64,000 bases of DNA. Origin: Dehalococcoidia bacterium (lineage in GTDB: Bacteria > Chloroflexota > Dehalococcoidia > DSTF01 > JACRBR01). Both the position numbers and the translations under genes were made by a program. Positions 18,998 through 49,916 of the stretch are shown piece by piece (the first letter of the stretch is position 1; each line of letters begins with the position of its first letter). The notes below the pieces were generated by a model. That model did no database searches and was not told the DNA's origin. It worked only from the letters and a program-made list of their open reading frames with translations. Location of the stretch: contig JBGQBE010000001.1 of assembly GCA_041494685.1 (NCBI GenBank), forward strand, positions 62,001-126,000. The letters run 5' to 3'.

Positions 18998-19067
18998 CGT
19001 CCAAACTAGACGACTGACGGTCGGTGGAGTCGAAGAGGATCACTGACCTTCCCGTCCAGCGGCGAGC
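18998..19067 (+). repeat. conserved left-end sequence L, copy 1
   Basis: 60/70 identical to 48736-48805 by manual alignment. Confidence 0.9.
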
Positions 19068-19127
19068 AACGCGTCGTCAGTGTCGTGGCTCTTTCGGCCA
19101 CCCAGAAGAAATCGGCGCGCGAGGCAC

Positions 19128-19213
19128 TTGACATCTCCAAACTGAGAGTGATACTCTCCCTCTCAGTTACGGTAGCTGCACTCTCACTCTCTAATCTGAG
19201 AGTGGTGCTCTCA
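19128..19213 (+). promoter_or_regulatory. promoter with palindromic operator repeats
   Basis: TTGACA-16-GATACT; AACTGAGAG/CTCTCAGTT inverted repeat around the -10; TGAGAG-N5-CTCTC occurs twice. Confidence 0.65.
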
Positions 19214-19235
19214 CCATTCAAGGAGGCGTCCTGTC

Positions 19236-20477
19236 ATGACCAAGCTGACCGGTATCAGCGAAATTGTACTCACTGCTGTCGAGACCAAGAACCTCGACAC
19301 CCTCTGTTTCAGGGGGTCCGCACCGCTCGCCCATCTGGCAATCCTCTCACAAGCAGACGTGTTCGACCAGGACACGAACCCGCACGGACTCCAAAGGGAT
19401 CTGTCGGCGAAGCACGCCGCGGAGGCGTATGAGTACGCGCACCGACCCGCAGATGGATCGCATCCGCGCGCCTTTCCCGAAGTCGTTGTCAACGTGCGAG
19501 ACAAGAAGGTCATCGAGATCGAGGACGTGTCGCCGGCCGGGGACGACCAACTGCGGCAGGTGCGCGTGCATTTCTTCCTCGAGAAGATGCGCGGCCCCGA
19601 CAAGGTATTTGTGAGCCGCGTCGATGGGAACCATCGATTGTTCTACGGCGCCGGTGGCGATGACCGCGACCCCGTGTTGGCCGACGTGCCGTTCCAGATC
19701 CAGGTCGGACTCACAAGGGATCAGGAGGCCCATCTGTTCGTCGACATCAACGCGAACCAGAAGGGCCTGAACAGCTCGCACCTCGACATCCTTAAGAATC
19801 GGCTCACGCCTGCGGAGCGCGAGATCAAGGACTACCCGCAACGATGGATCGCGAAGCGGCTCACGGACGATCCCGGCTCTCCGTGGCACGGGTTGATCCA
19901 CATGGGTGGAGCGAAGAAGGGCGCCCGAGCCCAAGGGTTGTCGCGCCCGGTGAACTTCGCGAGCCTCGAATCAGGCGTGGCACGCACGTGGGCAAAGAGT
20001 CAGTACATCCACGATCTCACGCAGATCGAAGCGCAGTACGGCGTGATTCGCAACTACTGGATCGCGGTAAAGGCGGTCTTCGCGAAGGAGTGGGCCGACG
20101 CGAAGGGATACCTGCTGCTGAAGAACATCGGCGTCCTCAGTCTGTCGATCCTGGGTGGCACCGTGGTGGACCGCTGCATCCCGCGCGGGAAGGTGACGCC
20201 GGAGGAGATGGCGTACTACCTGCGGCAGGTGCAGGGCATCATCGATTGGCAGCGCGACGCCACCGGAGACGGGTCGATTAGTGGCATGTCGGGCAACCGT
20301 GCAGCACTGCTCATCGCCGCTCAGATGGCGGGACAGCTGTCCGATCCGACTGGCACGACGGTGATTAAGGACCTCGAAGATAAGTTGATTCGGGAGGCGG
20401 TCGGGACGAGGCAGAGCGATGACGAGCGCGCTATGGAGGGCGAGCTGGCAGCGGCGTCAGAATTCGTCAGGAGTTGA
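19236..20477 (+). CDS. DGQHR (DndB-like) domain protein
   Basis: GLQRDLS, FPEVVVN, RVDGNHRL, EAHLFVDINANQK; AAGGAGG RBS. Confidence 0.88.
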   Translation: MTKLTGISEIVLTAVETKNLDTLCFRGSAPLAHLAILSQADVFDQDTNPHGLQRDLSAKHAAEAYEYAHRPADGSHPRAFPEVVVNVRDKKVIEIEDVSPAGDDQLRQVRVHFFLEKMRGPDKVFVSRVDGNHRLFYGAGGDDRDPVLADVPFQIQVGLTRDQEAHLFVDINANQKGLNSSHLDILKNRLTPAEREIKDYPQRWIAKRLTDDPGSPWHGLIHMGGAKKGARAQGLSRPVNFASLESGVARTWAKSQYIHDLTQIEAQYGVIRNYWIAVKAVFAKEWADAKGYLLLKNIGVLSLSILGGTVVDRCIPRGKVTPEEMAYYLRQVQGIIDWQRDATGDGSISGMSGNRAALLIAAQMAGQLSDPTGTTVIKDLEDKLIREAVGTRQSDDERAMEGELAAASEFVRS

Positions 20478-20482
20478 GGAAC

Positions 20483-20581
20483 ATGGGCTACGAGATTGAC
20501 TTCCTGCCAGGAAAGGAATTCGGATCAGAATGGCGTGCCAACTTGCACGTCGCGAAGAAGCTATCGACGGGACTGGCTTAG
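20483..20581 (+). pseudogene. 32-aa remnant, MBL/ComEC-like N-terminus
   Basis: MGYEIDFLP after a GAGGA RBS, then diverges and stops. Confidence 0.4.
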
Positions 20582-20582
20582 C

Positions 20583-22013
20583 ATGCGGGTTTCAGAGCAC
20601 TACCGACTCAATCGCGCACAGGCGGATCTCGATTTCGTAGACGTGGACGTTACCGGCGACGTTCAGTTGTTCGTTGATCCGCGCGCTTTACACGCCTTGC
20701 CCTCCGAATGGGGAGCTTACTGCCGGAGTCTCATCCAGAACTTTTTTCATGCCGTCCTCGATGCGATCCGAACCGGGGACGATGAGCGAGCAAAGCAACT
20801 TCTTGGGCGCCTGCGCGAGCCGAACGAAACACATCTCGGGCTTTCAGCCGGAGCAGCGCGTGGACGTGCCTTGGGGCCTGACTCTGCGGAAGATGTGTGG
20901 GAGGCTCTAACGAGCAGCGAAGCCGCAAGAACCGGGATGCTGGATGACTTGGAGGATACCATCTTGTTGGTGCCCGGCATCAGTTCGGACATTGTGTCGG
21001 ACATCGCTACGAACGTGATTCGTGAGCCGTTGATTCGATACACAGCGGCGGTCGCAGAATACTTCGGAATACCACTGGAGAACGACGTTGACTCCGGTCC
21101 GCTCTGGAACCCTGTCAAACGGGTGTGGGAATCCGGATACGTGAAACTCCCCGTCACGCCACACGGCAAGCTGTTACTGATTCCGAAGAGCCTAGTGCGG
21201 AGAAAGATGGACTACGACCTTAAGGAGTACTATCGGGACTACATGATCGAGCACCTGCGGCATGTTGAGGAATCGGCGAATTCGGAGCTCGTACACCTCC
21301 TTCGCGACGGGAGGCGGCGCGTGTACGTCACGGAGCTCGAAGAGAAGTACGGGACAGGAAAACACGCCGTCGTGCGACTTAGCCGAGAATATCCGGATGT
21401 CCTTGATCGATACCGCGCGGACAAGAAGCGACGCACCTCACCTCCGTTATCCAACGACGAAATCGCGCCGTGGGTTGGCGCACCAGAGCCTGACTGGGAC
21501 GCGCTATTGGCGGACGTAACGCGCACGCGCAGAGGAAAGGACGCTGCAGACGACTACCACAGAGCGGTGGAACGAATGCTCACAGCTCTGTTCTATCCAC
21601 ACCTCACGGGCCCAGAGATTGAGTTCCCCATCCATGACGGACGCAAGCGAATCGATATTCGGTACACAAATGCCGCGACATCGGGCTTCTTCGACTGGCT
21701 CGGCTCTCGCTATCCTGCCCCATACGTCTTTGTGGAGTGCAAGAACTACACGGGGGATCCGGCGAATCCGGAACTCGACCAATTGGCCGGGCGCTTTTCG
21801 CCAAGACGGGGTCGGTTCGGGCTCCTAGTATGTCGGACCTTTAAGGACAAGGCGCGTTTCGTTGATCGCTGCAAGGACACGGCGCGTGATGATCGTGGGT
21901 TTATCATCGCCCTCGATGACGCGGACCTCGTTGCTCTTGTCGCCGACTATCGTGCTAGGGGCGCTCTGGCTTACGACGTGCTGCAAGCGCGCTTCGACGA
22001 ACTCATAAACTAG
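20583..22013 (+). CDS. hypothetical protein with C-terminal PD-(D/E)XK restriction-endonuclease-like domain
   Basis: DVQLFVDP N-terminus; GRKRID...FVECKNY...ELDQLAGRF; atypical codon usage. Confidence 0.75.
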   Translation: MRVSEHYRLNRAQADLDFVDVDVTGDVQLFVDPRALHALPSEWGAYCRSLIQNFFHAVLDAIRTGDDERAKQLLGRLREPNETHLGLSAGAARGRALGPDSAEDVWEALTSSEAARTGMLDDLEDTILLVPGISSDIVSDIATNVIREPLIRYTAAVAEYFGIPLENDVDSGPLWNPVKRVWESGYVKLPVTPHGKLLLIPKSLVRRKMDYDLKEYYRDYMIEHLRHVEESANSELVHLLRDGRRRVYVTELEEKYGTGKHAVVRLSREYPDVLDRYRADKKRRTSPPLSNDEIAPWVGAPEPDWDALLADVTRTRRGKDAADDYHRAVERMLTALFYPHLTGPEIEFPIHDGRKRIDIRYTNAATSGFFDWLGSRYPAPYVFVECKNYTGDPANPELDQLAGRFSPRRGRFGLLVCRTFKDKARFVDRCKDTARDDRGFIIALDDADLVALVADYRARGALAYDVLQARFDELIN

Positions 22014-22052
22014 ATCGGAGAACGTGTCGCGCGGCATGCAGCGAGCAGGCGT

Positions 22053-22137
22053 CAGGTGCTATTCGAAAATCGCGCGAACCGCAGGTAACTTGTGATTCTA
22101 GCTTCGGATCGCAGATACGCGAGCAGAGCATGAGCGC
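22053..22137 (+). repeat. conserved right-end sequence R, copy 1
   Basis: 22053-22118 matches 49831-49897 with 5 mismatches and 1 indel; weaker similarity continues ~19 nt. Confidence 0.9.
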
Positions 22138-22237
22138 CGGAGTGGCCCAGTCTCCAGTCCCCCGGCCTCTGAACTCCAACGTGCCCCACGGAGGCGCTTT
22201 ACTTCTTCCAGCGGGGTGATCTACGCTCAATCCACGT

Positions 22238-23428
22238 ATGTCACGCCTGATCTATCTCGACCACGCCGCCACGACGCCGCTGCACCCGAGCGCGCTCGAC
22301 GCGATGCTGCCGTTCCTCAGCGGCTCCTACGGCAACCCCTCGGCCACGTACGGGCTGGCGAAGCAGGCCGGCGACGCGGTGCAGCGCGCCCGCCGCAGCG
22401 TCGCCGCGGCGCTGGGCGCCCGGCCGACGGAGATCGTCTTCACGAGCGGCGGCACCGAGTCGATCAACACCGCCATCAAGGGCGTCGCGTTCCAGCAGAA
22501 GAAGGCGCGCGCCGGCAACCACATCGTCACCACGGCGATCGAGCACCACGCCGTGCTGCACGCCTGCCAGTACCTGGAGCGGTTCGGCTTCGAGGTCACC
22601 TACCTGCCGGTGGACCGCCACGGGCTCGTCGAGCCGCGACACGTCGCCGACGCGATCGGCGAGCGCACGGTGCTCGTCAGCGTGATGGCGGCGAACAACG
22701 AGGTCGGCACGATCGAGCCGATCGCGGAGATCGCCGCGGCCGTGCGCGAGCGCGCCGCCGCGCTGCACAAGCGCATCCCGCTGCACACGGACGCGGTGCA
22801 GGCACCGAACGCCATCGCCCTCGCCGAGATCGCGCGCGAGGTGGACGTGCTGAGCCTGGCGGCGCACAAGTTCCGCGGGCCGAAGGGCATGGGCGTGCTG
22901 TACATGCGCAGGGGCGTGCCGTTCCTCGCACAGCAGAACGGCGGCGGCCAGGAGCGCCAGCGCCGCGCCGGCACCGAGAACGTCGCCGGCATCGTCGGCA
23001 CGGCGGAGGCGCTGCGCATCACGCAGGGCGGACTCGCGGCCGACCGCGAGCGCATCGGCGGGCTGGCGGCGCGGCTGCGCGATGGCATCCTGCGCGCGAT
23101 CCCGGGCACCGCCCTCAACGGGCACCCGGAGCGCCGCCTGCCGAACAACGTCAGCATCAGCTTCGACGGCGCCGACGCGCGCGACCTCGTCGCGGCGCTG
23201 GACGCGGCCGGCATCGCGTGCAGCGCGGGCGCGGCATGCGGCGCGACCAACGTCGAGCCGTCGCACGTGCTGCTGGCGCTCGGCGTCCCGCTCGACCGCG
23301 CGATCGCGACGCTGCGCCTGACCGTGGGGCACGAGACGGCCGAGGCGGACATCGACGCCGTGCTGGCCGCGCTGCTGGGCATCGTCGAGCGCTCGCGCGC
23401 CGACCGCGCGCTCGCCGAGAGCGCCTGA
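22238..23428 (+). CDS. iscS: cysteine desulfurase (IscS/NifS family)
   Basis: YLDHAATTP, FTSGGTES, EHHAV, NNEVG, HTDAVQA, AHKFRGPKG, SAGAAC. Confidence 0.92.
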   Translation: MSRLIYLDHAATTPLHPSALDAMLPFLSGSYGNPSATYGLAKQAGDAVQRARRSVAAALGARPTEIVFTSGGTESINTAIKGVAFQQKKARAGNHIVTTAIEHHAVLHACQYLERFGFEVTYLPVDRHGLVEPRHVADAIGERTVLVSVMAANNEVGTIEPIAEIAAAVRERAAALHKRIPLHTDAVQAPNAIALAEIAREVDVLSLAAHKFRGPKGMGVLYMRRGVPFLAQQNGGGQERQRRAGTENVAGIVGTAEALRITQGGLAADRERIGGLAARLRDGILRAIPGTALNGHPERRLPNNVSISFDGADARDLVAALDAAGIACSAGAACGATNVEPSHVLLALGVPLDRAIATLRLTVGHETAEADIDAVLAALLGIVERSRADRALAESA

Positions 23429-23472
23429 GCCGCGCCTACCTGCCTGCCGCCCGCAGCCGATATGATCTCCGC

Positions 23473-24309
23473 ATGAGCGAGCGGACCTGGGACTTCGTCG
23501 TGCAGGACGCGCATGCGCGCCGCCGCCGCGGCACCGTCGCCTGGCGCGACGCGCTGCTGTCGCCGCTCACGTCGCCCGCAGCCCGCGCCGAGTTCGGCAT
23601 CGTGTTGCTCTCACGCGCGGGCGGCGTGCCGCTGCCGGTGCCGATCGAGGTCGCGGTCTGTGTGCCCGGCCTGACGAAGATCCACGTGCTGGGCGCCCGC
23701 GTGGCCGACGCCCTGCCGGCAAAGGTCGAGAACCTGACGCTGAAGCCGCAGCGCATGGCCGAGTTCGCCGCGGGCCGCATCGTCATGGCGGCCGAAGGCG
23801 TCATCACACCGGAGGCCGTGTTCCCGGCGGAGGGCGAGCGCCCGCGACTGGACCTGCTGGCGCTGGCGCTGATCGACGTCGCCACCGCCGAGGCGCTCGC
23901 GCCGTACCGCGCGCTGATCCGGCACCAGTTCCACCTGCGCCCCGGCACCGACCCGCTCGTCGCGCTCGAGGCGCGGCTCTCGCCGGCCGATGCCGAGTCG
24001 CGACCGCCCGCGCGCGCGCCCGGCATCCTGCGGCTGGCGCGGGCGCGGCGCCGCATGAAGCAGGACCTGCCGCCGGACAGCTACGACCTCGACGAGATGG
24101 CGGAGGACCTGCACTTCCTCTCGATGTTCGACGACGACGCCAAGGCGTTCAGCCGCCGCGGCCTCGACCGCCTGCTCGGCGACGTGCTGGACACGCCGGC
24201 GCCGCGCCGCACGGAGATCGCGGACGCCGCGCCGCCCGCCACTGACGAAGCGCCGCCGGACAACGTCGTGCCGATGCGCCGCAAGCCCGCGCCGAAGGAG
24301 GACGCGTGA
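23473..24309 (+). CDS. hypothetical protein
   Basis: 3' part of the 697 aa frame from MSERTW; coupled to pth by GTGA overlap. Confidence 0.7.
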   Translation: MSERTWDFVVQDAHARRRRGTVAWRDALLSPLTSPAARAEFGIVLLSRAGGVPLPVPIEVAVCVPGLTKIHVLGARVADALPAKVENLTLKPQRMAEFAAGRIVMAAEGVITPEAVFPAEGERPRLDLLALALIDVATAEALAPYRALIRHQFHLRPGTDPLVALEARLSPADAESRPPARAPGILRLARARRRMKQDLPPDSYDLDEMAEDLHFLSMFDDDAKAFSRRGLDRLLGDVLDTPAPRRTEIADAAPPATDEAPPDNVVPMRRKPAPKEDA

Positions 24310-25195: not shown

Positions 25196-25243
25196 GAAGC
25201 TCGGCGCCGTGCGGCTGCCTCGCGCAGCCGGTACGCTCCCGGC

Positions 25244-26407: not shown

Positions 26408-27358
26408 GGCGGCTCGCTCACCCGGTTCACGCACCGCGGCATCCGACTCCATCCAGTACGACGAGAGCACGTCGATGCGCGGCACCGGCGAGCGGCCGCT
26501 GAACGCGAAGCTCAGCTGCACCAGTCCCACGGCGACGACCACGAGCACGAGCGGCGACGCGATCAGCACGTTCGCCACGCCGAACTGCGCCGCCGCCAGA
26601 CCCAGCCCGAGCAGCGGCAGGATCGCCGCGCCGTTCTTCAGCGTGCTCTGGAGCGCGAACGCCCGCCCCTGGTACGAGAGCGGCACCCGGCGGTTGAGAT
26701 ATGTGTGCACGGACGTGGTGGTGATGGCCAGCCCGAAGCCGAGGGGCACCGCCAGGATGCCTCCGGTGCGCAGCTCCGGGTTCATATCGAGGTTCAGCAG
26801 CGACAGCGCGCGCAGCGGGTTCGCCGGATCGATGACGTCCGCGAGCTGGTCGACGAGCCCCAGCAGCGACAGGACGCACGCCGTCAGCAGGAAGCCGCCG
26901 AGCGCCACCATGCGCTCGCCGCGAAAGCGGATCAGCGGCGGCGCGGCCACCAGCGCCAGAAGCAGGCCCAACGCCGACGGCGCGAAAACGTACACCGCGT
27001 CCGCCGGGTCGACGTGCAGGACGGCCTGCACGTAGCGCGGCGCCAGCGTCGTTACCACGATGTTCGCCGTGCCGACGAGCACCGCCACGAAGATCATCGT
27101 GGCGACGGCGGGCTCCTGCGCCAGCCAGCGGACCGTCGCGAACACGCGGACGTCCGGGCGGCGCCAGTCCATGCGGCGCAGTGGCTGGTGCGTCGCCAGG
27201 TCGAAGACGCGGCTCGCGGCGAACAGCAACATCAGCCCCGCCGCCGTGAACACCGCCTGCTCGCCGAAGGCGCGCACCAGGATCGGCGCCAGCAGCGCCG
27301 TGCCGAACTGCGCATCGTCGTTCACAAGTACTGGTGTCGACCGCTGGAGCTCGTTCAC
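26345..27358 (-). pseudogene. MFS transporter, N-terminally truncated
   Basis: Only the C-terminal MFS helices are present (VPLSYQGRAFA); 5' end runs into lower-GC DNA at ~27330. Confidence 0.6.
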
Positions 27359-27461
27359 GTTTTTACCACCATTCTTTCGATCTCGTCGGGCCTCTTGACA
27401 AACAACCTACGCAAGAGTACGCTCGCCGAGCATCCTGTATTGTAGGATTGGAGGCAGTGAT

Positions 27462-28709
27462 ATGCGTTGGAGTACCGTCCTATTCATCGGTGGCGTCATC
27501 GCTCTGTGTGTCTCCATGTCTCGGGTGCCGGTCGTGAACGCCCATCATTACGACGATGGGAGCCACGGCGGGTATCTTTTCCCGGCAGCGCAAGCGTACG
27601 AGATGAACGGTACGACGGTGCAAGGTCAGTCCACGCAAATTCAGCTGCAGACGTTCGATTCGGACTGGGCCGGCGCGCTGTCGACATCCATCACGAACTG
27701 GAACAGCGGCATGTCTTCGACGACCGGGTTCAACGTCTACTCGTCAGGCTCGGCGAACATAAACGTCTACGCGGACACGAGTCAGGTCTGCGACGTAGGT
27801 GCGCACGGCTGCGTCAAAGCGTGGTCACCCGCTGTTCCTTCGGCTGAGATACACATGGAGACGGCGTATTTCACGTTCCAAGATCATCGAGTGTCGGACC
27901 TGATGCACGAGATGGGACACGTCATCTTCCACGCGGGCGAGCACTATCCTACGTACGACTGCACGAGCATCATGGGCCATTCGGCAAAGGAATTCTCTGG
28001 GGCTGCCGGATATTGCGGGACAGGCTTGGGGAGTGACGTGCTGACCGTGGTGCAGTCGCATGACGTATCGGACTACGTGAGCGCTTACGGCGTTCGGGAG
28101 ACTCAGGACGCGATCTACGTGAACATGCTCGGGAGCGCGACCTTGGTGCACTACTTCGAGGGTGGGTGGTACGGAGGGATCGGTCTAACAGTTCATCAGG
28201 AGTACGAGAACGTGATAGACCGGTCGACGTCGAATATCACGGGTGGCTACTCCTTCTATCACTCTATTGGGCGGAAAGTCTCGAACGCGGACGACAGTAC
28301 GCCCGAGAACCAGTCTTACGGGGAAGAGCCGGGCGTGAACGCGGAGTGGTGCTTCAAGATGCACGGCCACACACACGCGTTGGCGAGCGGCGCGGCCAAC
28401 GAGTGGGGTCCGTACTCACATCGCTACTGCATAGCGCATTCCGGGGCTGGTTCGGGCGTCTTTGTGACTAGCGATCGTAACAACGGAAATGCGAACTTCA
28501 GGGTGTGGAACTTCTCGGGTGCTGCCATACCCAACGTCCAGATCAGGACACAGCCGTCGCCGGGCACGCAGATCTGCAACTTTGGCACGATCAACAACAA
28601 CGCGGTTAGCGCTACGTGCTCAAGCGGCGTCGGAGGGCCAGGGATCCTTGACCTCTGGTACAACAACAGTTGGGTGCCGCTCGACACGATCGGCTACGAC
28701 GGTAACTAG
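27462..28709 (+). CDS. secreted metzincin-type zinc metalloprotease
   Basis: Signal peptide; HEMGHVIFHAGEH followed by SIM Met-turn. Confidence 0.75.
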   Translation: MRWSTVLFIGGVIALCVSMSRVPVVNAHHYDDGSHGGYLFPAAQAYEMNGTTVQGQSTQIQLQTFDSDWAGALSTSITNWNSGMSSTTGFNVYSSGSANINVYADTSQVCDVGAHGCVKAWSPAVPSAEIHMETAYFTFQDHRVSDLMHEMGHVIFHAGEHYPTYDCTSIMGHSAKEFSGAAGYCGTGLGSDVLTVVQSHDVSDYVSAYGVRETQDAIYVNMLGSATLVHYFEGGWYGGIGLTVHQEYENVIDRSTSNITGGYSFYHSIGRKVSNADDSTPENQSYGEEPGVNAEWCFKMHGHTHALASGAANEWGPYSHRYCIAHSGAGSGVFVTSDRNNGNANFRVWNFSGAAIPNVQIRTQPSPGTQICNFGTINNNAVSATCSSGVGGPGILDLWYNNSWVPLDTIGYDGN

Positions 28710-28720
28710 GAGGCGATTCC

Positions 28721-29659
28721 GTGAACAGACGAGAGATTCCTGCTGCGTTCGGACTACTTCTTACGGTCGCGTTGTTGATCGGGTCAAACCGGGGCTGGAG
28801 CGTGGGGAACGTCGGGGCACAGACGCCGCCAATTGTCACTCCGACTTTCACGAGCACGGGTACGGTCACGGTCACAAGTACGACCGTGGCGAGCGGAACC
28901 GCCACGCCAGTAGCCACCCAAGTTGCGACGAGCACTGCGGTAGCTGGCAAGCTGGCTAGTGTCTCCGTGAAGTTGGTGGAGGACACTAACGCAAACGGGA
29001 TCGCTGACGCGGCGGATCGCGTACCACAGCAGACGCTCATTCAGCTGGTTCCGTGGGCGCGACCGAGCGCGGGTGCTGGCTTTCCCGGGGGCAAACCGAT
29101 CGACGCTCCGGCTGACATAACTTCCGATGGAGACTCAGTGATTAGTTTGCTGACGGCCGTTGACGGATCGTTCTCGCTCACACGAATGCCCGCTGGCGAC
29201 TACACGTTGTTGGTCTGGTGGGAGGCCGGCTTCGTAACTGGGGCATCGCCGTCTGTACCAGACGTATTCCAAGCGGTGTTCAGCGTAGGTGCGGACGGGA
29301 GCATCGGCGCGCCTACTGCAAGTCCAGAGGTGTGGCCCGGAGTACGCGGAGACGTAACGAACCCGACTAAAGAGGTCGGTACGATTGGCCGCGTGCCCTT
29401 ACAGATCTTGCTAAAAGCGAGTCCTCCCGGACTCATCCCGTACCCGGTATCTACGGGGGGTTCGGAACGCTTGGGGGTGGGTTCAGTGGATGTCTCGACG
29501 GCTCTGGGGTTACCGGGCGGCCGGGTGGCTCTACCAACGACGGGCGAATCCGGCGCGAACAGTTCGGAGTCCAACGTACCCGTTGTCTTGGCTTTGGCCG
29601 TGATAGTCATGATGTTGGCCGCCGCGCTTACCGTCGGGCTTAAGATCCGCCGCGCGTAG
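28721..29659 (+). CDS. surface protein with LPXTG-type C-terminal anchor
   Basis: Signal peptide, Thr-rich stretch, EDTNANGIAD (SdrD-B-like), LPTTG + TM helix + KIRRA. Confidence 0.72.
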   Translation: MNRREIPAAFGLLLTVALLIGSNRGWSVGNVGAQTPPIVTPTFTSTGTVTVTSTTVASGTATPVATQVATSTAVAGKLASVSVKLVEDTNANGIADAADRVPQQTLIQLVPWARPSAGAGFPGGKPIDAPADITSDGDSVISLLTAVDGSFSLTRMPAGDYTLLVWWEAGFVTGASPSVPDVFQAVFSVGADGSIGAPTASPEVWPGVRGDVTNPTKEVGTIGRVPLQILLKASPPGLIPYPVSTGGSERLGVGSVDVSTALGLPGGRVALPTTGESGANSSESNVPVVLALAVIVMMLAAALTVGLKIRRA

Positions 29660-29969
29660 CTGCCGGCACTAACATTCAGAGGGAGTAGCGACCGGCTACT
29701 CCCTTCGCGTTCTGCACCACGGCGCATTTGGTTCCTCGTGAGCTGCCCGCCCGCGTTCTGCAAGAGCAACGTAAAACGGCTCCGTCTGTTAAGTGGCGTG
29801 GATGCGTCAAATGGATAGTTTCCGCTTCAGTTCCGGCCCAACGGCGTTGCCCTCAGAGACGGCGGCCGCTGCGCGCGGTTGGTTTAACGGAGCTGAAGCG
29901 GGAATGGTCGGCTTGACACAGTACGCCGAAAGCCTCATACTGTGAAGGTAGCACAGATGAGGACGGACG

Positions 29970-30984
29970 ATGAACAGCGAACCGAAGCGCAAGGGCCACA
30001 CCAACAACCTGAACGATCTGCTCCAGACAGAAGCCGATGCACGGGCATTCCTTGAGTCGAAGCGATGGCCGAACGGCGTCGTCTGCGCCTTCGAGGACTG
30101 CGGCGGTTCCGATGTGACTCGAATGGAGATCGCGGCCAAGACGTACCCGCGCGCTGGCAAGCCGGATCGCGTCGTCCCGGCGCGCTCGCTGTTCAACTGC
30201 AAGGCATGCCGCCGTCAGTTCACCGTCACCAAGGGCACGATCTTCGAGGACTCGAAGATCGCTCTGCGGACGTGGCTCATAGTCGCCCAGCGGATGGCTG
30301 TCTCTAAGAAGTCCGTCAGCGCGCGCCAGATCGAGCGGGAGTTCGGCGTCACCCACGAGGCCGCATGGTTCATGTGCCACCGTATCCGCTGGGCCATGAC
30401 GGACAAGAACCCGTCTCGGCTCAAGGGCACCATCGAAGCCGATGAGACCTACGTGGGCGGCAAGCCTCGCGGCCACCGATTGCACCGCTCTGCGAAGATG
30501 AACATGAGCGAGCGGATAACCGAAGCCTGGGCGAACAAGACGCCAGTGTTCGGCATACGGGAGCGCGACGGGCGCGTGCGGGCGCGTGTCATGAAGAAGG
30601 TCTCTCAGCAGGAAATCGAGCGCACGATGTTTCACCACATCGACCGCGAGAACTCCCGGCTCATGACCGATGAGCACATAATCTACAACCGGATAAACCA
30701 GCTGCTCCCGCACGACGTGATCCGCCACAAGAGCGAGTACGTGCGCGGCGAAGTCCACACGCAAGGGATTCGAATCGTTCTGGGCGATCTTGAAGCGCGG
30801 GCTGATCGGCACGTACCACCACGTAGACGCGGGCTACCTGAACCAGTACGTGCAGGAATACGCCTTCCGCCACAACACCCGTCACATAAGCGACGAGGAA
30901 CGGTTCAACGCGCTCTTGGCGAACGTGGGCGGGCGGCTGGACTGGTACGTGGGAAAGAACGCGAAGGCGGAGACGCCTTCCTAA
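29970..30984 (+). pseudogene. IS1595-family DDE transposase with a one-base insertion near 30770
   Basis: RWPNGVVC zinc finger, GTIFEDSK, EADETY, MTDE, HTQGI/ESFWAILKRG split across frames. Confidence 0.88.
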
Positions 30985-31090
30985 GTTCCTTAGGCATTGG
31001 CCCCGCGTGTATGAGCCGTTGTAGGACTTCGTCGAAGTCCATCCCGGAGAGGTCTATCGGCTTGGCTTTCGGTTTCTTCACATCGCTCAT
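30905..31090 (-). CDS. small ORF antisense to the transposase 3' end
   Basis: PIDLSGMDFDEVLQRL; AGGA RBS. Confidence 0.5.
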   Translation of the reverse strand: MSDVKKPKAKPIDLSGMDFDEVLQRLIHAGPMPKELRKASPPSRSFPRTSPAARPRSPRAR

Positions 31091-31105
31091 GGTGTCCTGA
31101 TTGTA

Positions 31106-31702
31106 TCAGGGAATGGGCGGCGGAATCGGCGTGACAGTTGCTGGCGTCAGGGTGGGTGGGATCGGAGTTGCCGCCTGATGGATATATGGAACAAAGATAG
31201 GCTGAGGGTTGCTGGTGCCACGCGATAGCACTCCCGCATAGATTGTGTATGCCGCAGCGATAGCCGTGAGCAACACTATCTCTCCGATGTGCCACCTGCG
31301 ATCCGATGTGCGCCTCCGTTCTTCCTGCTCATGCATCCACTGTCGATCTAGCATCTCGCGATGCTCTTTCGGCGTAGAGCCTCGCCGCCATTCGACGTAT
31401 CCGGCGCAAGCACGTTCCTTGTGTAGTGTTTCGAGGATACTGACTTGAGTCGATGTTGGTGGGTCCGTCCCGTAATACGGGCTGGCAATAATCTCGGAAA
31501 AGAGGTCTGCGTATCCGTCCAGACAAAACGGGAGAAGTTCGGAATGCGACGTCGCTGTATAGCGGCCGCCCAGTGGCGCGGCGTGTAGCCGGAAGTCTTG
31601 ATCCGCCTCGATAATCGCGCCGCCCTCGCTTCGGAGCGAGAGTCGCCCGCAATTCGCGCACTTGACCTTTCCTGGCGTCGGCTGGGGAACCAACGTGGGC
31701 AT
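31106..31702 (-). CDS. IS passenger, hypothetical membrane-anchored protein
   Basis: CANC motif and a C-terminal TM helix. Confidence 0.6.
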   Translation of the reverse strand: MPTLVPQPTPGKVKCANCGRLSLRSEGGAIIEADQDFRLHAAPLGGRYTATSHSELLPFCLDGYADLFSEIIASPYYGTDPPTSTQVSILETLHKERACAGYVEWRRGSTPKEHREMLDRQWMHEQEERRRTSDRRWHIGEIVLLTAIAAAYTIYAGVLSRGTSNPQPIFVPYIHQAATPIPPTLTPATVTPIPPPIP

Positions 31703-31820
31703 GGCGCGATCCTATCACGCCTCACGCCACGCACCAGACGCGCCCTGTCAGGGTCGACCACGGTCACTTAATCACCGCCCTGATCTTCTGGGGCCATGAA
31801 GCGATTGAACGGAGGAGCCC

Positions 31821-32612
31821 ATGTCAGCAAAGCTTGCCGCCAAGAACGCCGCAGCGAAGTTCCGGCGCGCAGGCGTACATCTTCATGAACTTGATCGGCG
31901 GCTCCACTCCTTCCAAAAGCGTCATCCATACAAGGCGATCCGTCAGCACAAACCGGGACTTTCGTATGTTCAGTTCGACTTCCATCATGCAGCTGATCCG
32001 CCGCTCAGCATCGGTGCCGTGCTCGGCGACTTCATCCAAGACCTTCGCGGCTCTCTGAACTACCTGATCTTTGAGTTGTCGCTCCTTGACCCCAAAGTCC
32101 CGCAAGAAGCTCTCGACAGAGTCGAGTTCCCTATCTTTGCCGAAGACAGACCAGCCGCGATCGAAAGCCGGATCAGCCACATCCCCGAGGACGCGAAGCA
32201 CATAATCAAGGCGATGCAGCCACACCACAAAGGAGACGGCGCGAAGGCGGAACCGCTCTGGCTGCTCCACGAGATGGCGACACTGGACAGGCATTGTTTC
32301 ATCCCAGTCGCAGGCCATCAGTACCGGACGGGCGTCATCGGCCAGCCTGGTCAGGAAGTCATTCTTTCCGGCTTCTTCCAAGCAGGCGAAGTAATGATGC
32401 GGCTCCCCATCGCCCACGATGAGGAACTTCAACAGCCGTTTGAAGGGCGCGTAGCATTCGTCGCCACCTTGGAACCGCGCCGATGGATCGCCATCGACGG
32501 GCTCCATCAGATGCACTACATGGTCGGCAACGAAATACTGCCCCAGTTCAATCGCTTCTTCGCGAAGAAGATCGAGCGTGGTTGGGAGCGCGTTCGCAAT
32601 GCGTCGCAATAA
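31821..32612 (+). CDS. IS passenger, hypothetical helical protein (possibly HEPN-like)
   Basis: GDFIQDLRGSLNYL...FPI...LHEMATLDRH pattern; GGAGGAG RBS. Confidence 0.65.
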   Translation: MSAKLAAKNAAAKFRRAGVHLHELDRRLHSFQKRHPYKAIRQHKPGLSYVQFDFHHAADPPLSIGAVLGDFIQDLRGSLNYLIFELSLLDPKVPQEALDRVEFPIFAEDRPAAIESRISHIPEDAKHIIKAMQPHHKGDGAKAEPLWLLHEMATLDRHCFIPVAGHQYRTGVIGQPGQEVILSGFFQAGEVMMRLPIAHDEELQQPFEGRVAFVATLEPRRWIAIDGLHQMHYMVGNEILPQFNRFFAKKIERGWERVRNASQ

Positions 32613-32780
32613 TGGAGCCTTTCGCGGTGCTGTGTCAAGCCGACCATTCCCGCTGAAGCTCCGCGGCTACGGCTGAACGGGGCATTGGGGCTGTGCGGCC
32701 GCGCGCCCCCCGCTTGAGCCAGACGCGGCGTTCGCGGATAGTCAGACGTACCGGCACGCTCCGACTAGTGAAGAGGCCCG

Positions 32781-40324: not shown

Positions 40325-40460
40325 GACAAACCTCCGATACCAGGCGACAACGCAGAGACCAGCGGAGTTTACTTCGCCGTCGATGAACTGTCGAGGAAAT
40401 GGAGCAAGAGCCTGGCCACGTGCGTGGCCGCAAGCGTCTGCCGAATCCAGGGGAGTGATA

Positions 40461-40503
40461 TGGTCGGGGCGATAGGACTTGAACCTGCGACCTCCTGACC
40501 CCC
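40461..40503 (-). repeat. tRNA-Pro 3'-half duplicate (att-like)
   Basis: Matches 48557-48599 with 2 mismatches and ends in the anticodon loop. Confidence 0.9.
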
Positions 40504-40559
40504 GCTGCTGCGAAGCGCTGATCGGGCGATCAGCCCCCGATCGTGCCGGCCGGCCGGAC

Positions 40560-41594: not shown

Positions 41595-41616
41595 AGGACC
41601 ACCTCGTTCCTTTTCC

Positions 41617-44005: not shown

Positions 44006-44007
44006 CG

Positions 44008-45342: not shown

Positions 45343-45348
45343 CGTACG

Positions 45349-46152
45349 CTAACTCCAGTGCTCGCCCTCGATCGTCTGTCCGTGGCCCGCGATGTACCAC
45401 ACGCGCGGGCTCGTGTTCAGCTCTTCCTTCAGGCGGAATCCGTCGTTCTCGCTCAAGTAGCGGGACATCTCGTACGTCTCGCCGGACCGGTTCGTCATCA
45501 CCCGAGTATTGAGATCGGCGATGTAGAGCGCGTCCATCGGACACGCGGCGACGCACGCCGGCAGCTTGCCTTCATCGACGTAGTGGACGCAGAGGACGCA
45601 CTTCCCCACGGTCCCGCGTCTCTGCGGCACCGGGAACTCGGGCATCGGGTTGTTGAAGTTCTTCGGCGGTTGCGGCGGCTGGCGGAAGTTGAAGTACCGC
45701 GCCTCATACGGGCACGCCGCCATGCAGAGGCGGCAGCCGATGCAGCGGTCTTGATTCACCAGCACGACGCCTTCAGCGCTCTTGAACGTCGCCCCGACCG
45801 GGCACACCTTCAGGCAGGGAGCGTTCTCGCACTGCATGCAGAGGCGGGGCATGAAGAAGCGGTTGCCGTTGGCGTCTTCCACTTCGTAGATCTTGATCCA
45901 CTCCATCTCCTTGGGCAGGTAGTGGGTGGCCTGGCAGGCCTGCGTGCAGTACTTGCAGCCGTCGCACCGCCGGAGATCGACGACGGCCGCCCACTGATGC
46001 TGTTCCTTCGGCGCGGCATCCGGCGCGGGCGGCGCCGCCACAGCCGGCTGCCCATCGACCTGGCGCAGCGCGGACCAGGCCACCTCGCCCGTGAGCACGA
46101 AGGCCGTCGCGGCTCCCAGGGTCTGGAGCAGTTCCCTCCTGGAGATGGGCAT
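45349..46152 (-). CDS. Tat-exported 4Fe-4S protein (NrfC/PsrB-like)
   Basis: SRRELL Tat motif; CDGCKYC, CMQCENAPC..VCP, CIGCRLCMAACPY, KCVLC...PAC...CP. Confidence 0.93.
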   Translation of the reverse strand: MPISRRELLQTLGAATAFVLTGEVAWSALRQVDGQPAVAAPPAPDAAPKEQHQWAAVVDLRRCDGCKYCTQACQATHYLPKEMEWIKIYEVEDANGNRFFMPRLCMQCENAPCLKVCPVGATFKSAEGVVLVNQDRCIGCRLCMAACPYEARYFNFRQPPQPPKNFNNPMPEFPVPQRRGTVGKCVLCVHYVDEGKLPACVAACPMDALYIADLNTRVMTNRSGETYEMSRYLSENDGFRLKEELNTSPRVWYIAGHGQTIEGEHWS

Positions 46153-46360
46153 CGACAGGCTCCATTCATGCCGGCGAACTGGCGGTCGCTCTCGACAGAA
46201 CAATTGTGCCCCGGTCGATGCCGTTTGGCATGCGTGGTACCGCTTCAGCGCACACGGGCAGATCTACCTGCGTCAACCTCGAAGGTCTATGCCCACAGAT
46301 ACATGACCCCGTGCCACCGGCGAGCGCCTAATGGGTGTAAATACGCGCTTGGAGGTTGCC

Positions 46361-47059
46361 GTGGCCGAGGCGTCGATCCTGGGAACCAGCGCGCCGATGC
46401 GCGTCGTCATCGCTGACGACCACACCCTCATCCGCGAGGGGACCAGCCGGATCCTCGAGACCCAGCCGGACATCGCCGTCGTCGGCGAGGCGGGCGACGG
46501 CGCCAGCGCTGTCGAGACGGCGCTGCGTCTCCAGCCGGACGTCGCCCTGCTCGACCTCCGCATGCCCGTCCTGAACGGCATCGAAGCGACGCAGCGCATC
46601 CGCGCGCAGGCTCCGAACATCGCCGTGCTCATCCTCACCGCCTACGACGACGACGAGTACGTCTCGGCGGTCATCAAGGCCGGCGCCTCGGGCTATCTCC
46701 TCAAGACCGTCCGCGCCAACGAGCTCATCGAGGCCCTCCGCCGCGTCCGCATGGGAGAAGTCGTGCTGCATCCCGCGATCGCCAGCAAACTGGCGCGGCT
46801 CTTCGCGAAGAACCTCGGCACCGTGCCGGAAGAGCACCGGCTGACATCGCGCGAGATGGACATCCTGCGGCAGGTGTGCATGGGGAACCTCAACAAGGAG
46901 ATCGCCGGCGAGCTGGGGCTCAGCATCCGCACTGTCGAGGGCCACCTGAACGCCATCCTGGGCAAGCTCAACGTGCGGTCGCGCACGGAAGCGGCGATGT
47001 ACGCGTCCTATAAGGGCTGGTTCAGCGAGGGCGGCTTGTCGCCATGGGCACACACGTAG
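46361..47059 (+). CDS. NarL/LuxR-family response regulator
   Basis: IADDH, LLDLRMP, GYLLK, LTSRE...NKEIA.EL..S.RTV. Confidence 0.95.
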   Translation: MAEASILGTSAPMRVVIADDHTLIREGTSRILETQPDIAVVGEAGDGASAVETALRLQPDVALLDLRMPVLNGIEATQRIRAQAPNIAVLILTAYDDDEYVSAVIKAGASGYLLKTVRANELIEALRRVRMGEVVLHPAIASKLARLFAKNLGTVPEEHRLTSREMDILRQVCMGNLNKEIAGELGLSIRTVEGHLNAILGKLNVRSRTEAAMYASYKGWFSEGGLSPWAHT

Positions 47060-48510
47060 GGCTCGCCGCGCGGCGGCCGTTGCTCGCCGGCGCCGATCGC
47101 TGGCCGCGCCTCGATGCGCTGCGCGCCGCGGCGAGGCTGCCGCTCAGGGATCGCCGGTTCTGGATCACGCAGGCCATGATCCTGGGCATCATCGGCCTCC
47201 ATGAGTCGATCGAGCTGTTCGGGTTCGTGCCCAGCCTCGGCATGCTGTACTTCGTGCCGACCGCGCTCTTCTTCATGCCCGTGGTCTACGCCGCCATCAA
47301 CTTCGGCCTGCGCGGGTCGCTCGCCACCGTGCTCTGGTGCACGCTGATCACGCTTCCCAACTGGGTATTCTGGCACGAGGGCTTCGAACGGTACGCCGAG
47401 ATCGCGCAGATGGGCTTCGTCGCGGCCTTCGCACTGATGGTCGGCCTCCGCGTCGATGAGGAGCGCAAGGCATATGCGCGCGTCGAGATGGTCTCCCACG
47501 CGCTCGAACGCTCCGAGCAGCGATACCGCGAGCTGTTCGAGGCCGCCCGCGAGGGTATTCTCGTGCTCGACGAAGCGGGCCGGATCGTCGAGTGCAACTC
47601 CGCCGCGCGCGCGCTGATGCAGGCCTCGCCCGCGGCGGCGGACCACGGCCGCCTCCACGACGTCTTCCCACGGGAAGCGGCGGCGCAGATCATGGCGCAG
47701 GTGTCGAATCCGGACGAGCGCCCCGGGGCGATCCGGCTGCGCACGCCCGCCGGAGACGAGGCGTGGGTCGAACCCGTGTGCACCCGTCTGCGCGGCGATG
47801 CCCCCGGCACCCAGGTCTTGCTGCGCGACGTGACGCGGCAGCAGCGCCGCCAGGAGAACCTCGAGACGTACACCGCCCAGGTGCACAGGGCGCAGGAGGA
47901 CGAGCGGCGCAGGATCGCGCAGGAGATCCACGACGACACCGTGCAGTCGCTCGTCCTCCTGTGTCGCGAGTTGGACGACGTGGAGGAGCGCTGCGGCGAG
48001 ACGCCGGACCGCGTCGCATCCAGCCTCCGCAGCGCGCGGGACCATGCGGCAGAGATCGTGGGGACGCTGCGCGTGCTGATCCGGGGCATCCGTCCGCCCG
48101 CGCTCGATGATCTGGGGCTCGTCCCCGCCGTGCAGCGGCTGCTGACCGACGTCGCGTCGCACTCGACGGTCCGCACGGATCTGGTCGTGGCGGGCGCGGT
48201 GCATCGCGCGCCCCGCGCGGTCGAGCTGGCAATGCTCCGCATCGTGCAGGAGTCGCTGCGCAACGCGGAGCGTCACGGCGCGCCGGCGCGCATCGACGTC
48301 CACATCACGTACGCGCACGGACACGTCGAGCTGGAAGTCCGGGACGACGGTGCGGGGTTCGTCCCACCGCAGGATCCCTCCGACCTCGCGAGGGGGGGGA
48401 AGTGGGGGATCATCGGCATGCACGAGCGCGCGCGGGAGGTAGGCGGCGAGCTGCGCGTCTCCTCGACGCCCGGCGCCGGGACGACGGTGCAGGCAGCCTT
48501 CGGCATCTAG
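47044..48510 (+). CDS. PAS-containing HisKA_3 sensor histidine kinase
   Basis: TM region, [35 protein letters not shown]. Confidence 0.93.
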
Positions 48511-48556
48511 TCCGCGCGGCGGTGACCCAGCCGCAGGCGTCCGCAGCGGGGGTGAA

Positions 48557-48633
48557 TGGTCGGGGCGACAGGATTTGAACCTGCGACCTCCTGACCCCCA
48601 GTCAGGTGCGCTACCGGGCTGCGCTACGCCCCG
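48557..48633 (-). tRNA. tRNA-Pro (anticodon GGG)
   Basis: CGGGGCGTAGCGCAGCCCGGTAGCGCA-CCTGA CTGGGGG TCAGG-AGGTCGCAGGTTCAAATCCTGTCGCCCCGACCA. Confidence 0.96.
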
Positions 48634-48735
48634 AACGGGACGATCGTAGCACGGCAAGCAGGGCGCGCCAAAGGCGGCGGGAGTCTGCGCGACCGCGGAG
48701 CGATTCTGGATACCCGCTTGATGCGCGGGTGCTGG

Positions 48736-48805
48736 CGTCGAATCTGGACGACCGAAGGTCGGTGGAGTCGAAGATGATCACTAACCTTCCTGCCGAGCGG
48801 CGAGC
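48736..48805 (+). repeat. conserved left-end sequence L, copy 2
   Basis: 60/70 identical to 18998-19067. Confidence 0.9.
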
Positions 48806-48811
48806 GATTTC

Positions 48812-49693
48812 TCAGTCAACAACTGGACGCTGCTCGAGTGGGCGCATCACGACGTCGAGCGCCGGCCACGGTGGACCCTCGCGCAGGGCGCGGAGAAGCT
48901 CTCGCCCTGCTCGCTGCCCATTCGGGAATTGGTCGCCTCGATCCCACCGCCAGGCTGCGACCATCGCAAGCACGAGGCCACGGCACTCGGCGAGCAGTTC
49001 TTGGTCAGCGCCCGCATAGCGCTCGCTGACCTCTTCGGGCACATGGGCGAGGTCGAATTCGACAGGCCCCCGGCAGCACGTCTCGAGGTCGATGAACAGC
49101 AGCCCGCTCTTCGTGTCGAGCAGGTTGCCCGGGTGCGGCTCGCCGTGCAGCAGTTGCTCGGCGGCGCCGCGGTCGCAGATCGTTTGTCTCAGGCTTCCTA
49201 ACGTGTCGCTGAGAAGCTCCCGGTCCGCGTCGGCGAGCGCCGGAGTGAGGTCGCGGCTCGCAACGAGTTGTTGAGCCTCCGCGACTCGATCCGTGAAGTG
49301 TGGCGTCGTGAAATCGAGCTGCCGCATGCCGGCATGCAGCCGCTCGAGCGCATTCGCGTAGTCGGCTGGTGAGACCTCCCCAGTTGCTACAGGTTCGTAG
49401 TAGGTCCACAGCGTGACCACGAAGCCGTCACGGTCGTAGACCCGCGGCTCCACTCGAGGCTCAAGAGCACCCGCGGGGCTCCCGGTTTCGGCGAGGCGTT
49501 GCGCCAGCTCGACTTCGAACTGTGCGACCTCCTGCCCTACATACGCGACGCGGGCAAGCACGTCGCAGGGGAGCAGCCGCAACGCGAGCTTGTTCGAGTT
49601 GCAAAGAACGATTGCGTTCGTCGACTCCAGGCCAAGCGCTGAGCCAATCGATATGGTCGCAGCCACGGCGCGCGAAACGTCTGATGCCTGCAT
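48812..49693 (-). CDS. aminoglycoside-phosphotransferase-like (APH/kinase fold) protein
   Basis: LLHGEPHPGNLL, LFIDLE, GPVEFDLA. Confidence 0.85.
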   Translation of the reverse strand: MQASDVSRAVAATISIGSALGLESTNAIVLCNSNKLALRLLPCDVLARVAYVGQEVAQFEVELAQRLAETGSPAGALEPRVEPRVYDRDGFVVTLWTYYEPVATGEVSPADYANALERLHAGMRQLDFTTPHFTDRVAEAQQLVASRDLTPALADADRELLSDTLGSLRQTICDRGAAEQLLHGEPHPGNLLDTKSGLLFIDLETCCRGPVEFDLAHVPEEVSERYAGADQELLAECRGLVLAMVAAWRWDRGDQFPNGQRAGRELLRALREGPPWPALDVVMRPLEQRPVVD

Positions 49694-49830
49694 CTTTCGC
49701 TTACCCCTCGCCGCGTTGCGCCAGGAGATCTCGATGGCGCGTGCAACCTGCGCACGATACCGAACGGTTCAATCGAGAACCGCCGGATCAATAAGGTGAG
49801 ACTGGGGGTTGTCTAACGGTCGATGTGAGA

Positions 49831-49916
49831 CAGGTGTTATTCGAAAATCGCGCGAACAGTAGATAACTTCGTGATTTTAGCTTCGGATCGCAGATACAAC
49901 TGCACAGCGTTAGCGC
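49831..49916 (+). repeat. conserved right-end sequence R, copy 2
   Basis: Matches 22053-22137. Confidence 0.9.

Follow-up and report, generated by a model that had tools for sequence, protein, structure and literature searches.

Two integrase-less islets with shared L and R sequences in a Dehalococcoidia genome and their probable descent from tRNA-targeting integrative elements

Cis-mobilizable elements (CIMEs) are described as elements that have lost their integration and transfer genes, have kept attL and attR, and arise by decay and tandem accretion; Rep_trans proteins are able to serve as relaxase and as replication initiator (PMC5704250). Among islands in tRNA genes anticodon-centred crossovers are common and islands with a 5' fragment of the tRNA gene are a minority, 159 of 3919 in Islander (PMC4383910). 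Here we analyse two islets in a 64,000-nt stretch of a Dehalococcoidia bacterium genome (the window, C1:62001-126000; the genome, G000, comprises 3.29 Mb in 87 contigs). Between the same left (L) and right (R) sequences they hold unrelated cargo, a DGQHR-domain gene with a candidate defence gene at site 1 and an APH-family phosphotransferase gene at site 2. We conclude, with moderate confidence, that L and R belong to the conserved non-coding DNA of a single family of integrative elements that target tRNA genes, and that the islets of the window are derivatives of such elements without integrase and Rep genes. Common ancestry from such elements, followed by loss of the mobility genes, would account for the end sequences that the two islets share.

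With CIMEs (PMC5704250) the islets have several properties in common. They are devoid of integration and transfer genes, only cargo-type genes and a small protein of unassigned family being found in them; site 2 keeps attachment repeats on both sides, which site 1 and a further copy on contig C75 do not; the attachment site, R-right with a tRNA-Pro fragment, is shared with three integrase-bearing elements; and islets stand in tandem with other islets or with full elements in two relatives (G002 and G001). Unlike CIMEs, they measure only 1.3-3.7 kb, have the 5' half and not the 3' end of the tRNA gene as target, keep the structured module L in addition, and have copies at non-tRNA sites without repeats. 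As in the islands of Islander (PMC4383910), an intact tRNA gene and a co-oriented fragment stand at the ends of site 2 with the probable crossover in the anticodon loop, and the autonomous relatives have a tyrosine integrase beside the restored tRNA gene. Unlike most of those islands, site 2 is of the 5'-fragment type, and the islets of the window would fail the integrase filter. The autonomous relatives, which combine an integrase with Rep_trans or a RepSA-like Rep, also resemble integrative and mobilizable or conjugative elements (IMEs, ICEs) with Rep_trans (MobT-type). Actinomycete integrative and conjugative elements (AICEs) of the pSAM2 type have RepSA and target tRNA-Pro, and tRNA-Pro is likewise a target of the autonomous relatives. 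Unlike IMEs and AICEs, however, the present family is hosted by Chloroflexota, has the 5' half of the tRNA gene replaced and not the 3', and its autonomous members are about 4.5-6.6 kb long; no FtsK/TraB-type or coupling protein was identified in them, their 423-aa and 823-aa proteins being without such a Pfam match. The islets of the window, also unlike IMEs and AICEs, have neither integrase nor Rep, and none cognate to the family is present in the whole genome.

No account of such elements in Dehalococcoidia was found in the literature searched, which is not proof that none exists. An odd pattern of repeats would here be explained by known biology, the decay of tRNA islands to integrase-less islets. 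The family, found in metagenome-assembled genomes (MAGs) labelled Dehalococcoidia or Chloroflexia, appears to use the uncommon integration into the 5' half of tRNA genes, covers tRNA genes of at least five specificities (Pro, Arg, Lys, Thr and Phe) and carries defence-type genes (DGQHR/PDC-M36A, GmrSD, AbiJ-like, HNH and methylase). The module L, which has no Rfam match, is a well-defined DNA or RNA structure with covariation and a candidate rolling-circle or transfer origin. If it is true that helpers move the islets, these would represent a compact natural cargo that retains only cis sites.

The islets of the window and their shared sequences

Site 2 lies at an intact tRNA-Pro(GGG) gene, its target (48557-48633, minus strand; ARAGORN, and Rfam tRNA with 66.7 bits). 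The true ends of this islet are tRNA-derived direct repeats and not L and R: 48595-48643 and 49925-49973 are identical in 49 of 49 positions, are spaced by 1330 nt, enclose the site and carry on for 37 nt more at 78% identity. The left, attL-like repeat (48595-48679) runs from the anticodon loop of the tRNA gene to its 5' end and on into the upstream flank, and the right, attR-like repeat (49925-50010) consists of a displaced tRNA-Pro(GGG) 5' half with its upstream flank. An earlier reading of the window from its letters (the sequence-only reading), which had taken L and R for the asymmetric ends of a non-autonomous element or cassette platform with exchangeable cargo, had missed both the tRNA gene and the 49-nt repeat. 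Within the repeats, L2 (48700-48806, plus strand; A-part remnant 48700-48753, hairpin B 48754-48789, tail CTGCCGAGCGGCGAGCG 48790-48806) stands about 100 nt upstream of the intact tRNA gene and is directed away from it. It is followed by the gene of the 293-aa APH-family phosphotransferase (48812-49693, minus strand; Pfam PF01636, E 8.8e-12) and by R2 (49831-49924, plus strand; R-left 49831-49858, R-right 49859-49897, tandem GCGTTAGC 49898-49924 at the crossover region), which continues directly into the displaced tRNA 5' half. An intact tRNA gene with a co-oriented 5' half on the correct side, the fragment sought by Islander, is thus present at site 2. The integrase that Islander also requires is missing: neither PF00589 nor PF00239 has a match in or beside either segment, in agreement with the sequence-only reading, and the integrase matches of the genome are on other contigs.

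The homology of the two L copies and of the two R copies is evident. L1 (18998-19067) and L2 (48736-48805) are identical in 60 of 70 positions (85.7%, 10 mismatches, no gap; BLAST E 6e-17 with the 3.29-Mb genome as search space), and R1 (22053-22137) and R2 (49831-49916) are 84.9% identical over 86 nt (12 mismatches, one gap, E 3e-20), with five mismatches and one indel in the 66-67-nt core from CAGGTG to GCAGATAC. Profile searches of the whole genome with nhmmer found six copies of L and four of R at E <= 1e-16, and beyond these no match better than E 1e-3. Judging from these E values and from the few copies in the genome, the similarity is therefore far beyond chance. L and R have the same order and orientation at both sites, have only two 7-nt words in common and are not inverted repeats of one another; terminal inverted repeats were found neither at site 1 nor at site 2. 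The sequence-only reading was accurate in its identity counts, in the order and orientation, and in stating that L and R are not inverted repeats of one another. Its boundaries were too narrow: L extends leftwards by about 50 nt more, and on the right about 30 nt have to be added to R, which thereby reaches the tRNA-derived repeat.

Both segments are inserted, foreign DNA of lower GC content (0.58-0.61 against 0.69-0.76 in the flanks) and lack mobility genes of their own, as had been supposed. At site 1 this is also evident from empty sites, for which the sequence-only reading had proposed to search: in 22 of 29 loci of relatives the class-V aminotransferase gene comes next after the NAD(P)HX epimerase/dehydratase gene, at a distance of about 130-380 nt, and in the other seven the second flanking gene was not within 1.5 kb. 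The window has at this place an insert of 3.7 kb made up of a small-protein gene, L1, two cargo genes and R1. The small basic protein of 137 aa (18468-18881, minus strand), which forms the left module of the islet, has the conserved N-terminus MPRGGRRPGAGAPRGN.NA and no match in Pfam, PHROG, PADLOC or NCBIfam. L1 is decayed (18960-19067, plus strand), with an A-part remnant without hairpin A (18960-19015), hairpin B (19016-19051) and the tail CCGTCCAGCGGCGAGC (19052-19067). The cargo genes, both on the plus strand, encode the DGQHR-domain protein (19236-20477; NCBIfam TIGR03187, E 1.1e-21; PADLOC DpdB, 8.9e-10) and a candidate defence protein similar to PDC-M36A (20496-22013; PADLOC PDLC04597, 9.3e-42; PHROG 27295, 1.3e-132). 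The earlier assignments of the DGQHR and phosphotransferase genes stand; the label of nuclease for 20496-22013 is unsupported, because this protein matches PDC-M36A and PHROG 27295 and no Pfam family. R1 (22053-22153, plus strand) is composed of R-left (22053-22080), R-right (22081-22119) and a diverged spacer to GGCCCAGTC at 22153.

Past 22153 host intergenic DNA follows, CCAGTCTCCAGTCCCC and then the aminotransferase promoter box GCGCTTTACTTCTTCC, as at the empty sites of relatives. The empty site of one of them (G034) has a word, CCAGTCTCC.GTCCCC, that is similar to the host-like DNA met by R1 past its ..GGCCCAGTC. This right junction fits a putative crossover at a CCAGTC microhomology with the anticodon-loop core, as judged from one distant relative only. 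The left junction abuts the stop codon of the upstream gene, and neither a tRNA fragment nor a tRNA-derived core on the left nor a target-site duplication was found at site 1. Since this is a non-tRNA site with a CCCAGTC microhomology on the right only and without the left core, the islet is probably fixed in place. A possible tRNA remnant in the right flank was considered and dropped, as the flank matches host intergenic DNA of G034.

The module L is clearest in full form in the relative G005 (L147), where four parts can be distinguished: an AT-rich palindrome forming hairpin A (AAAATCGCG / CGCGATTTT), the stretch ATGGATACCCCTTGAC with a small GGGT/ACCC hairpin, hairpin B (GAAGGTCRRYG .. CRYYGACCTTC) and the tail CTGCCTAGCGGCGAGCG. 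Folded as single-stranded DNA, this module has a z of -5.6, and its opposite strand one of -4.8. Hairpin B folds in 26 of 28 L copies. Its paired positions change in a compensatory manner (GC 11, AT 6 and GT 2; GC 15 and AT 4; GC 15 and TA 5), in L147 it has a complete TTCGG/CCGAA swap, and on the L strand G.T pairs outnumber A.C pairs, which is a strand bias. Hairpin B, the main hairpin, thus covaries, and L is kept for its structure. In the window, hairpin B of L1 (-15.2 kcal/mol) has one C/T mismatch and one G.T pair, and that of L2 one C/A mismatch and one G.T pair. The A-part is also found without hairpin B, about 190 nt before the RepSA-type rep gene of one element (G027) and in two other places, with a different hairpin coming next each time. 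Searches of Rfam for L and R, both at the gathering threshold and at E <= 1, gave only the tRNAs.

The fold of R is not significant against shuffles (R2 is no better), and we read R as putative double-stranded protein-binding DNA. R-right (GCAGATAACTT.., a small hairpin, GCAGATAC and GCACAGCGTTAGC repeats) also occurs in integrase-bearing elements, and R-left (CAGGTGCTATTCGAAAATCGCGCGAACC) is restricted to the islets. Words resembling ATAACTT and GCACAG, noted by eye, occur in R-right and in the tRNA-integrase arm of full elements, which fits putative integrase-arm binding sites on both arms. The halves of R are separable, because in G001 (L089, C12:2560-3460) a DinB-superfamily gene lies exactly between R-left and a degenerate R-right. 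The crossover-adjacent unit GCGTTAGCGCA is present in four tandem copies in G024 (L076, C1:10220-10256), compared with two in the window. The idea that R is a degenerate tRNA 3' half was considered by eye and dropped.

Copies in relatives and the autonomous elements

The connection of R with integrase-bearing elements comes from three complete small elements that lie between R with its tRNA fragment and an intact tRNA-Pro(GGG) gene. The first (G002, L081) encodes a tyrosine integrase (PF00589, 2.9e-22), a 113-aa open reading frame (ORF), Rep_trans (3.8e-24) and a 423-aa ORF; the second (G027, L082) an integrase (2.1e-23) and a RepSA/G2P-like Rep; the third (G016, L146) has the set of the second together with a SIR2-TPR gene and a DUF6414 gene. 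Some 100 nt separate the start of the integrase gene from the 5' end of the tRNA gene, and the integrase gene is directed away from the latter. Proteins more than 50% identical to the integrase of G027 form a clade with members in G016, G002, G005 (two copies) and G030. The two elements of G005, at tRNA-Phe(GAA) (L145) and at tRNA-Lys(CTT) (L147), have the order tRNA, integrase, Rep_trans, small ORF, L, 1.3-1.6 kb of cargo, and displaced 5' fragment. Because L follows the Rep module there, its place is internal, where the backbone meets the cargo slot. A metagenome contig with tRNA-Pro(GGG), the last ~54 codons of a RepSA-like rep gene (72% identity), 1.2 kb of DNA, R and the fragment would, from its gene content, be a deletion intermediate.

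These arrangements suggest the following mechanism. The autonomous elements would act through an Xer-like tyrosine integrase encoded beside the tRNA gene and a rolling-circle Rep (Rep_trans or RepSA/G2P); integration at the anticodon loop, where the integrase would perform the crossover, would replace the tRNA 5' half and leave the displaced 5' half at the far end. R would be the element-side attachment arm that abuts the crossover at tRNA-Pro(GGG), and L a strand-specific structured module with up to three hairpins at the start of the cargo slot after Rep, possibly a replication or transfer origin (double-strand origin, single-strand origin or oriT) or a region of rep control. The islets of the window would have been formed by internal deletion and cargo replacement with the cis sequences retained, and those with intact repeats could be movable by a helper element.

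Of the 35 further genomes of the family, 18 gave matches to L (17 of 34 without the unpublished G023) and seven to R; in 57 genomes of four sister families, queried with an L of G005, L was not found. L and R thus occur apart, which the sequence-only reading had itself named as contrary to its proposal: R-right is without L in all three integrase-bearing tRNA-Pro elements, and L is without R beside tRNA-Arg, -Lys, -Thr and -Phe genes and also alone. What stands of that proposal is the non-autonomous nature of the segments and their exchangeable cargo, as the same L and R flank at least six unrelated cargos across the family; L and R as the two termini of one element type or cassette platform do not stand. 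The idea of mobilisation in trans gains from the relatives with integrase and Rep a source of enzymes able in principle to act on the islets. In seven L..R pairs (two in the window, one on C75, one each in G024 and G007, two in G002) the orientation is the same and the cargo unrelated in 7/7.

L stands 20-170 nt upstream of an intact tRNA-Pro(GGG) gene in the window, G024, G007, G001 and G032, and likewise upstream of tRNA-Arg(CCT) in G009 and G018, tRNA-Lys(CTT) in G035 and tRNA-Thr(CGT) in G002; it lies far from any tRNA gene at site 1, on C75 and C11 and at four further loci (L084, L085, L088, L091). In 17 of 22 copies of L the GC content on its right side is lower by 0.04 or more. A displaced 5' half marks the far end of the island at tRNA-Arg in G009 (3.2 kb) and at tRNA-Thr in G002 (~7.7 kb), and beside these halves R-like words are found (GATAACTT, GCACAGCG, and AGTTAG next to the anticodon loop). 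At the nine places of R in other genomes of the family the tRNA-Pro 5' half is detectable by BLAST in seven, degenerate in one and reduced to CCCCCAG in one. Ten metagenome contigs have the 20-nt R word; eight of them contain R, with a tRNA-Pro fragment detected in seven of the eight, and two are chance matches in low-GC coding DNA. The pattern of the L tail, searched over 185,579 species, gave 19 matches, of which eight are true L, all in MAGs labelled Dehalococcoidia or Chloroflexia, and 11, from other phyla, lack the hairpin and look like chance. Tandem arrangements are seen in G002, where a glyoxalase islet stands beside the full element and two copies of L at tRNA-Thr, and in G001, with several APH copies.

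The islet of site 2 has its own relatives at tRNA-Pro(GGG): it is 85.6% identical over 1250 nt to an islet of G024 and 91% over 731 nt to one of the several APH copies of G001, so that the APH islet is found at this tRNA gene in three genera with non-syntenic flanks. Within the genome itself, a third L..R pair, arranged and oriented like the other two, encloses a GmrSD_N-domain gene and a 119-aa gene on contig C75, with R on the right and no core on the left side. The ends of C75 overlap contigs C20 and C38 at 98% identity, and C20:795-1136 encodes a third homologue of the small basic protein, a few hundred bases past the R end of the C75 islet. Contig C59 has a displaced tRNA-Pro 5' half, the small-protein gene (77% nucleotide identity over 490 nt), L and a full GmrSD gene, and no R. 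The small protein, 63% identical to that of site 1, is there encoded to the left of L and divergently, and the arrangement in G033 is alike. A role of this protein as L-binding factor was dropped, as it is beside L in three places only and 27 of 30 homologue loci are without L. On contig C67 a second tRNA-Pro(GGG) gene is followed by 1.9 kb of DNA, R and the displaced 5' half; this islet (C67:8087-10216, L185) has no L. The proteins encoded in it, one of 216 aa that matches RexA faintly (E 0.024) and one of 192 aa and of unassigned family, might together be an abortive-infection system.

Weighing of the readings

Several observations weigh against the proposed descent and the roles given to L and R. 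L was not found in the three R-bearing tRNA-Pro elements (nhmmer at E <= 1 and motif scan), so that none of the autonomous elements found combines L with R. Rep_trans is present in only 2 of the 35 genomes, so that a Rep-dependent L would usually be without its partner, and the role assigned to L is read from position and structure only. In the window the L hairpins are mismatched, and the single-strand fold of L2 equals that of shuffles (z 0.14). A tRNA-derived repeat is lacking at site 1 and in the C75 copy, two cases that simple core-by-core recombination can therefore neither explain nor reverse. The DNA upstream of the intact tRNA gene of site 2 is host-like and unlike the arm of integrase-bearing elements. 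The identity of 85.6% between the islets of G000 and G024 exceeds only modestly the 73% and 79% of two housekeeping genes. Additionally, the assembled contigs of four of 24 public runs break at the tRNA gene and at the displaced fragment, and among the joints listed from these repeat-broken contigs there was no excised circle, no empty tRNA site, no excision joint from 48595 to 49925 and no R-to-L joint. The summed contig depth over the APH gene is above that of the flanks in three runs; these depths mix organisms and nothing is drawn from them.

That the islets are mobilised in trans today is unproven. The best integrase match in the genome is only 32-33% identical to the integrase of the relatives and not cognate, two large serine recombinases are encoded on other contigs, and neither Rep_trans nor a RepSA-like Rep is present. 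A Y1 transposase (PF01797) was also not found in the genome by a search that matched 6 of 14 genomes as control. Given the completeness of 97.6%, the absence of a helper is likely and not certain.

The islets may alternatively be inert leftovers of old integrations, in which L and R are alike by recent descent without a function in cis and the cargo was changed by local indels. The missing helper integrase and Rep would agree with this, as would the weakened hairpins of L1 and L2, the shuffle-like folds of L2 and R2, the missing left core of site 1 and the degenerate R of G001 split by the DinB-family gene. However, the L hairpins have undergone compensatory changes across genera and four tRNA specificities, and copies of L and of R from different genera retain 85-90% identity although the ordinary intergenic DNA of these genera is unalignable. 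The presence of one APH islet in three genera, each time at tRNA-Pro(GGG) and between non-syntenic flanks, and the repeats of site 2 that are still identical in 49 of 49 positions, also speak against inert remnants. We therefore hold this explanation to be possible but rather unlikely.

It is still less probable that L, cargo and R-left constitute exchangeable cassettes in the capture slot of integrase/Rep elements, in an integron-like system independent of IntI/attC. L would then be a folded single-strand site, either an origin or a recombination site, the word AAAATCGCG common to hairpin A of L and R-left would mark the joint of a circular cassette, and protein-less islets like site 2 would be the minimal mobile form that helper integrase and Rep move. 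The sharp cargo boundaries, the separable halves of R, the tandem L copies of G002 and the strand-biased hairpins are compatible with such cassettes. As in integron cassettes, the cargos are exchangeable, small and mostly promoter-less, a strand-specific hairpin stands at one boundary, and L occurs in tandem in G002. Unlike integrons, there is no IntI, attI or Pc, the boundaries formed by L and R-left differ in sequence, the A-part of L also stands before a rep gene, and the orientation of the cargo with respect to L is mixed.

Very improbable is a role of L as a host feature of the region upstream of tRNA genes, a regulatory site or small RNA gene unrelated to R and to mobility. The nine places where it precedes an intact tRNA gene (Pro, Arg, Lys or Thr) by 20-170 nt would suit such a feature, as would its hairpins and a TTGAC box seen by eye. 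Yet L also lies far from tRNA genes at the seven places named above and within integrase/Rep elements at 2.7 kb from the tRNA, the unoccupied tRNA-Pro(GGG) gene of G033 has no L within 260 nt, the drop in GC content starts at L, and neither Rfam nor a sigma-70 scan for promoters gave a match.

Similarity to miniature inverted-repeat and palindrome-associated transposable elements (MITEs, PATEs) is seen in the excess of non-autonomous copies (L in 18 of 35 genomes) over autonomous ones (integrase clade in five genomes, Rep_trans in 2 of 35). The islets differ from them in the site-specific recombination implied, in carrying cargo genes and in having neither terminal inverted repeats nor target-site duplications, and they differ from IS200/IS605 (HUH) elements and PATEs in the lack of PF01797 in the genome, the unstructured R and the internal L of the G005 elements. 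The view of L and R as asymmetric ends of a non-autonomous transposon or a cassette platform (HUH/IS200- or IS110-like) with its dedicated enzyme elsewhere, although in line with the unrelated cargo between co-oriented L and R in all seven pairs, with hairpins close to both ends and with the location of site 1 and C75 away from tRNA genes, is largely refuted and hardly tenable, as L and R occur apart, R is fused to a tRNA-Pro fragment, R-right belongs to tyrosine-integrase elements, L is internal in G005, the genome has no Y1 transposase gene and site 1 has no target-site duplication or terminal inverted repeat.

Further features of the window and genome

Just upstream of the DGQHR gene two 25-nt direct repeats (19134-19158 and 19188-19212, 84% identical), each with a GAGAGT..ACTCTC palindrome, look like operator sites for the cargo operon. 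At site 2 (49694-49965) the displaced tRNA 5' half retains a putative promoter read by eye (TTGGCG..TACGAT, minus strand) that is aimed through R into the APH gene on the same strand, and the APH cargo could be transcribed from this captured tRNA promoter. A sigma-70 and terminator scan of 48500-50100 called no promoter or terminator, and therefore the tRNA promoter and the TTGAC box of L, both seen by eye, are unsupported. On contig C38 the word GAAAATCGCGCG near an integrase gene was judged unrelated on inspection.

A second island of low GC content (26700-32700; 0.58-0.63 against ~0.72) includes the transposase nearest to the two sites, of the IS1595 type (29970-31100) and related to neither. 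Five ORFs of this island had no match in Pfam, PADLOC or NCBIfam, and neither L nor R nor a tRNA fragment was found in it.

A 3' half of tRNA-Pro(GGG) (95% over 43 nt) is present at 40456-40552 on the minus strand and ends exactly in the anticodon loop (..CCTGACCCCC). It is followed by a 44-nt stretch with a perfect 11-bp palindrome (GGGCTGATCG..CGATCAGCCC), and this stretch recurs with 91% identity at the right end of the C59 islet. Over the 8 kb from the fragment to the intact tRNA gene codon usage is host-like and no integrase is encoded. The fragment may be the relic of an integration of opposite polarity or of an att-site rearrangement, and a similar tRNA-Pro 3'-half fragment lies at C1:26760-26799.

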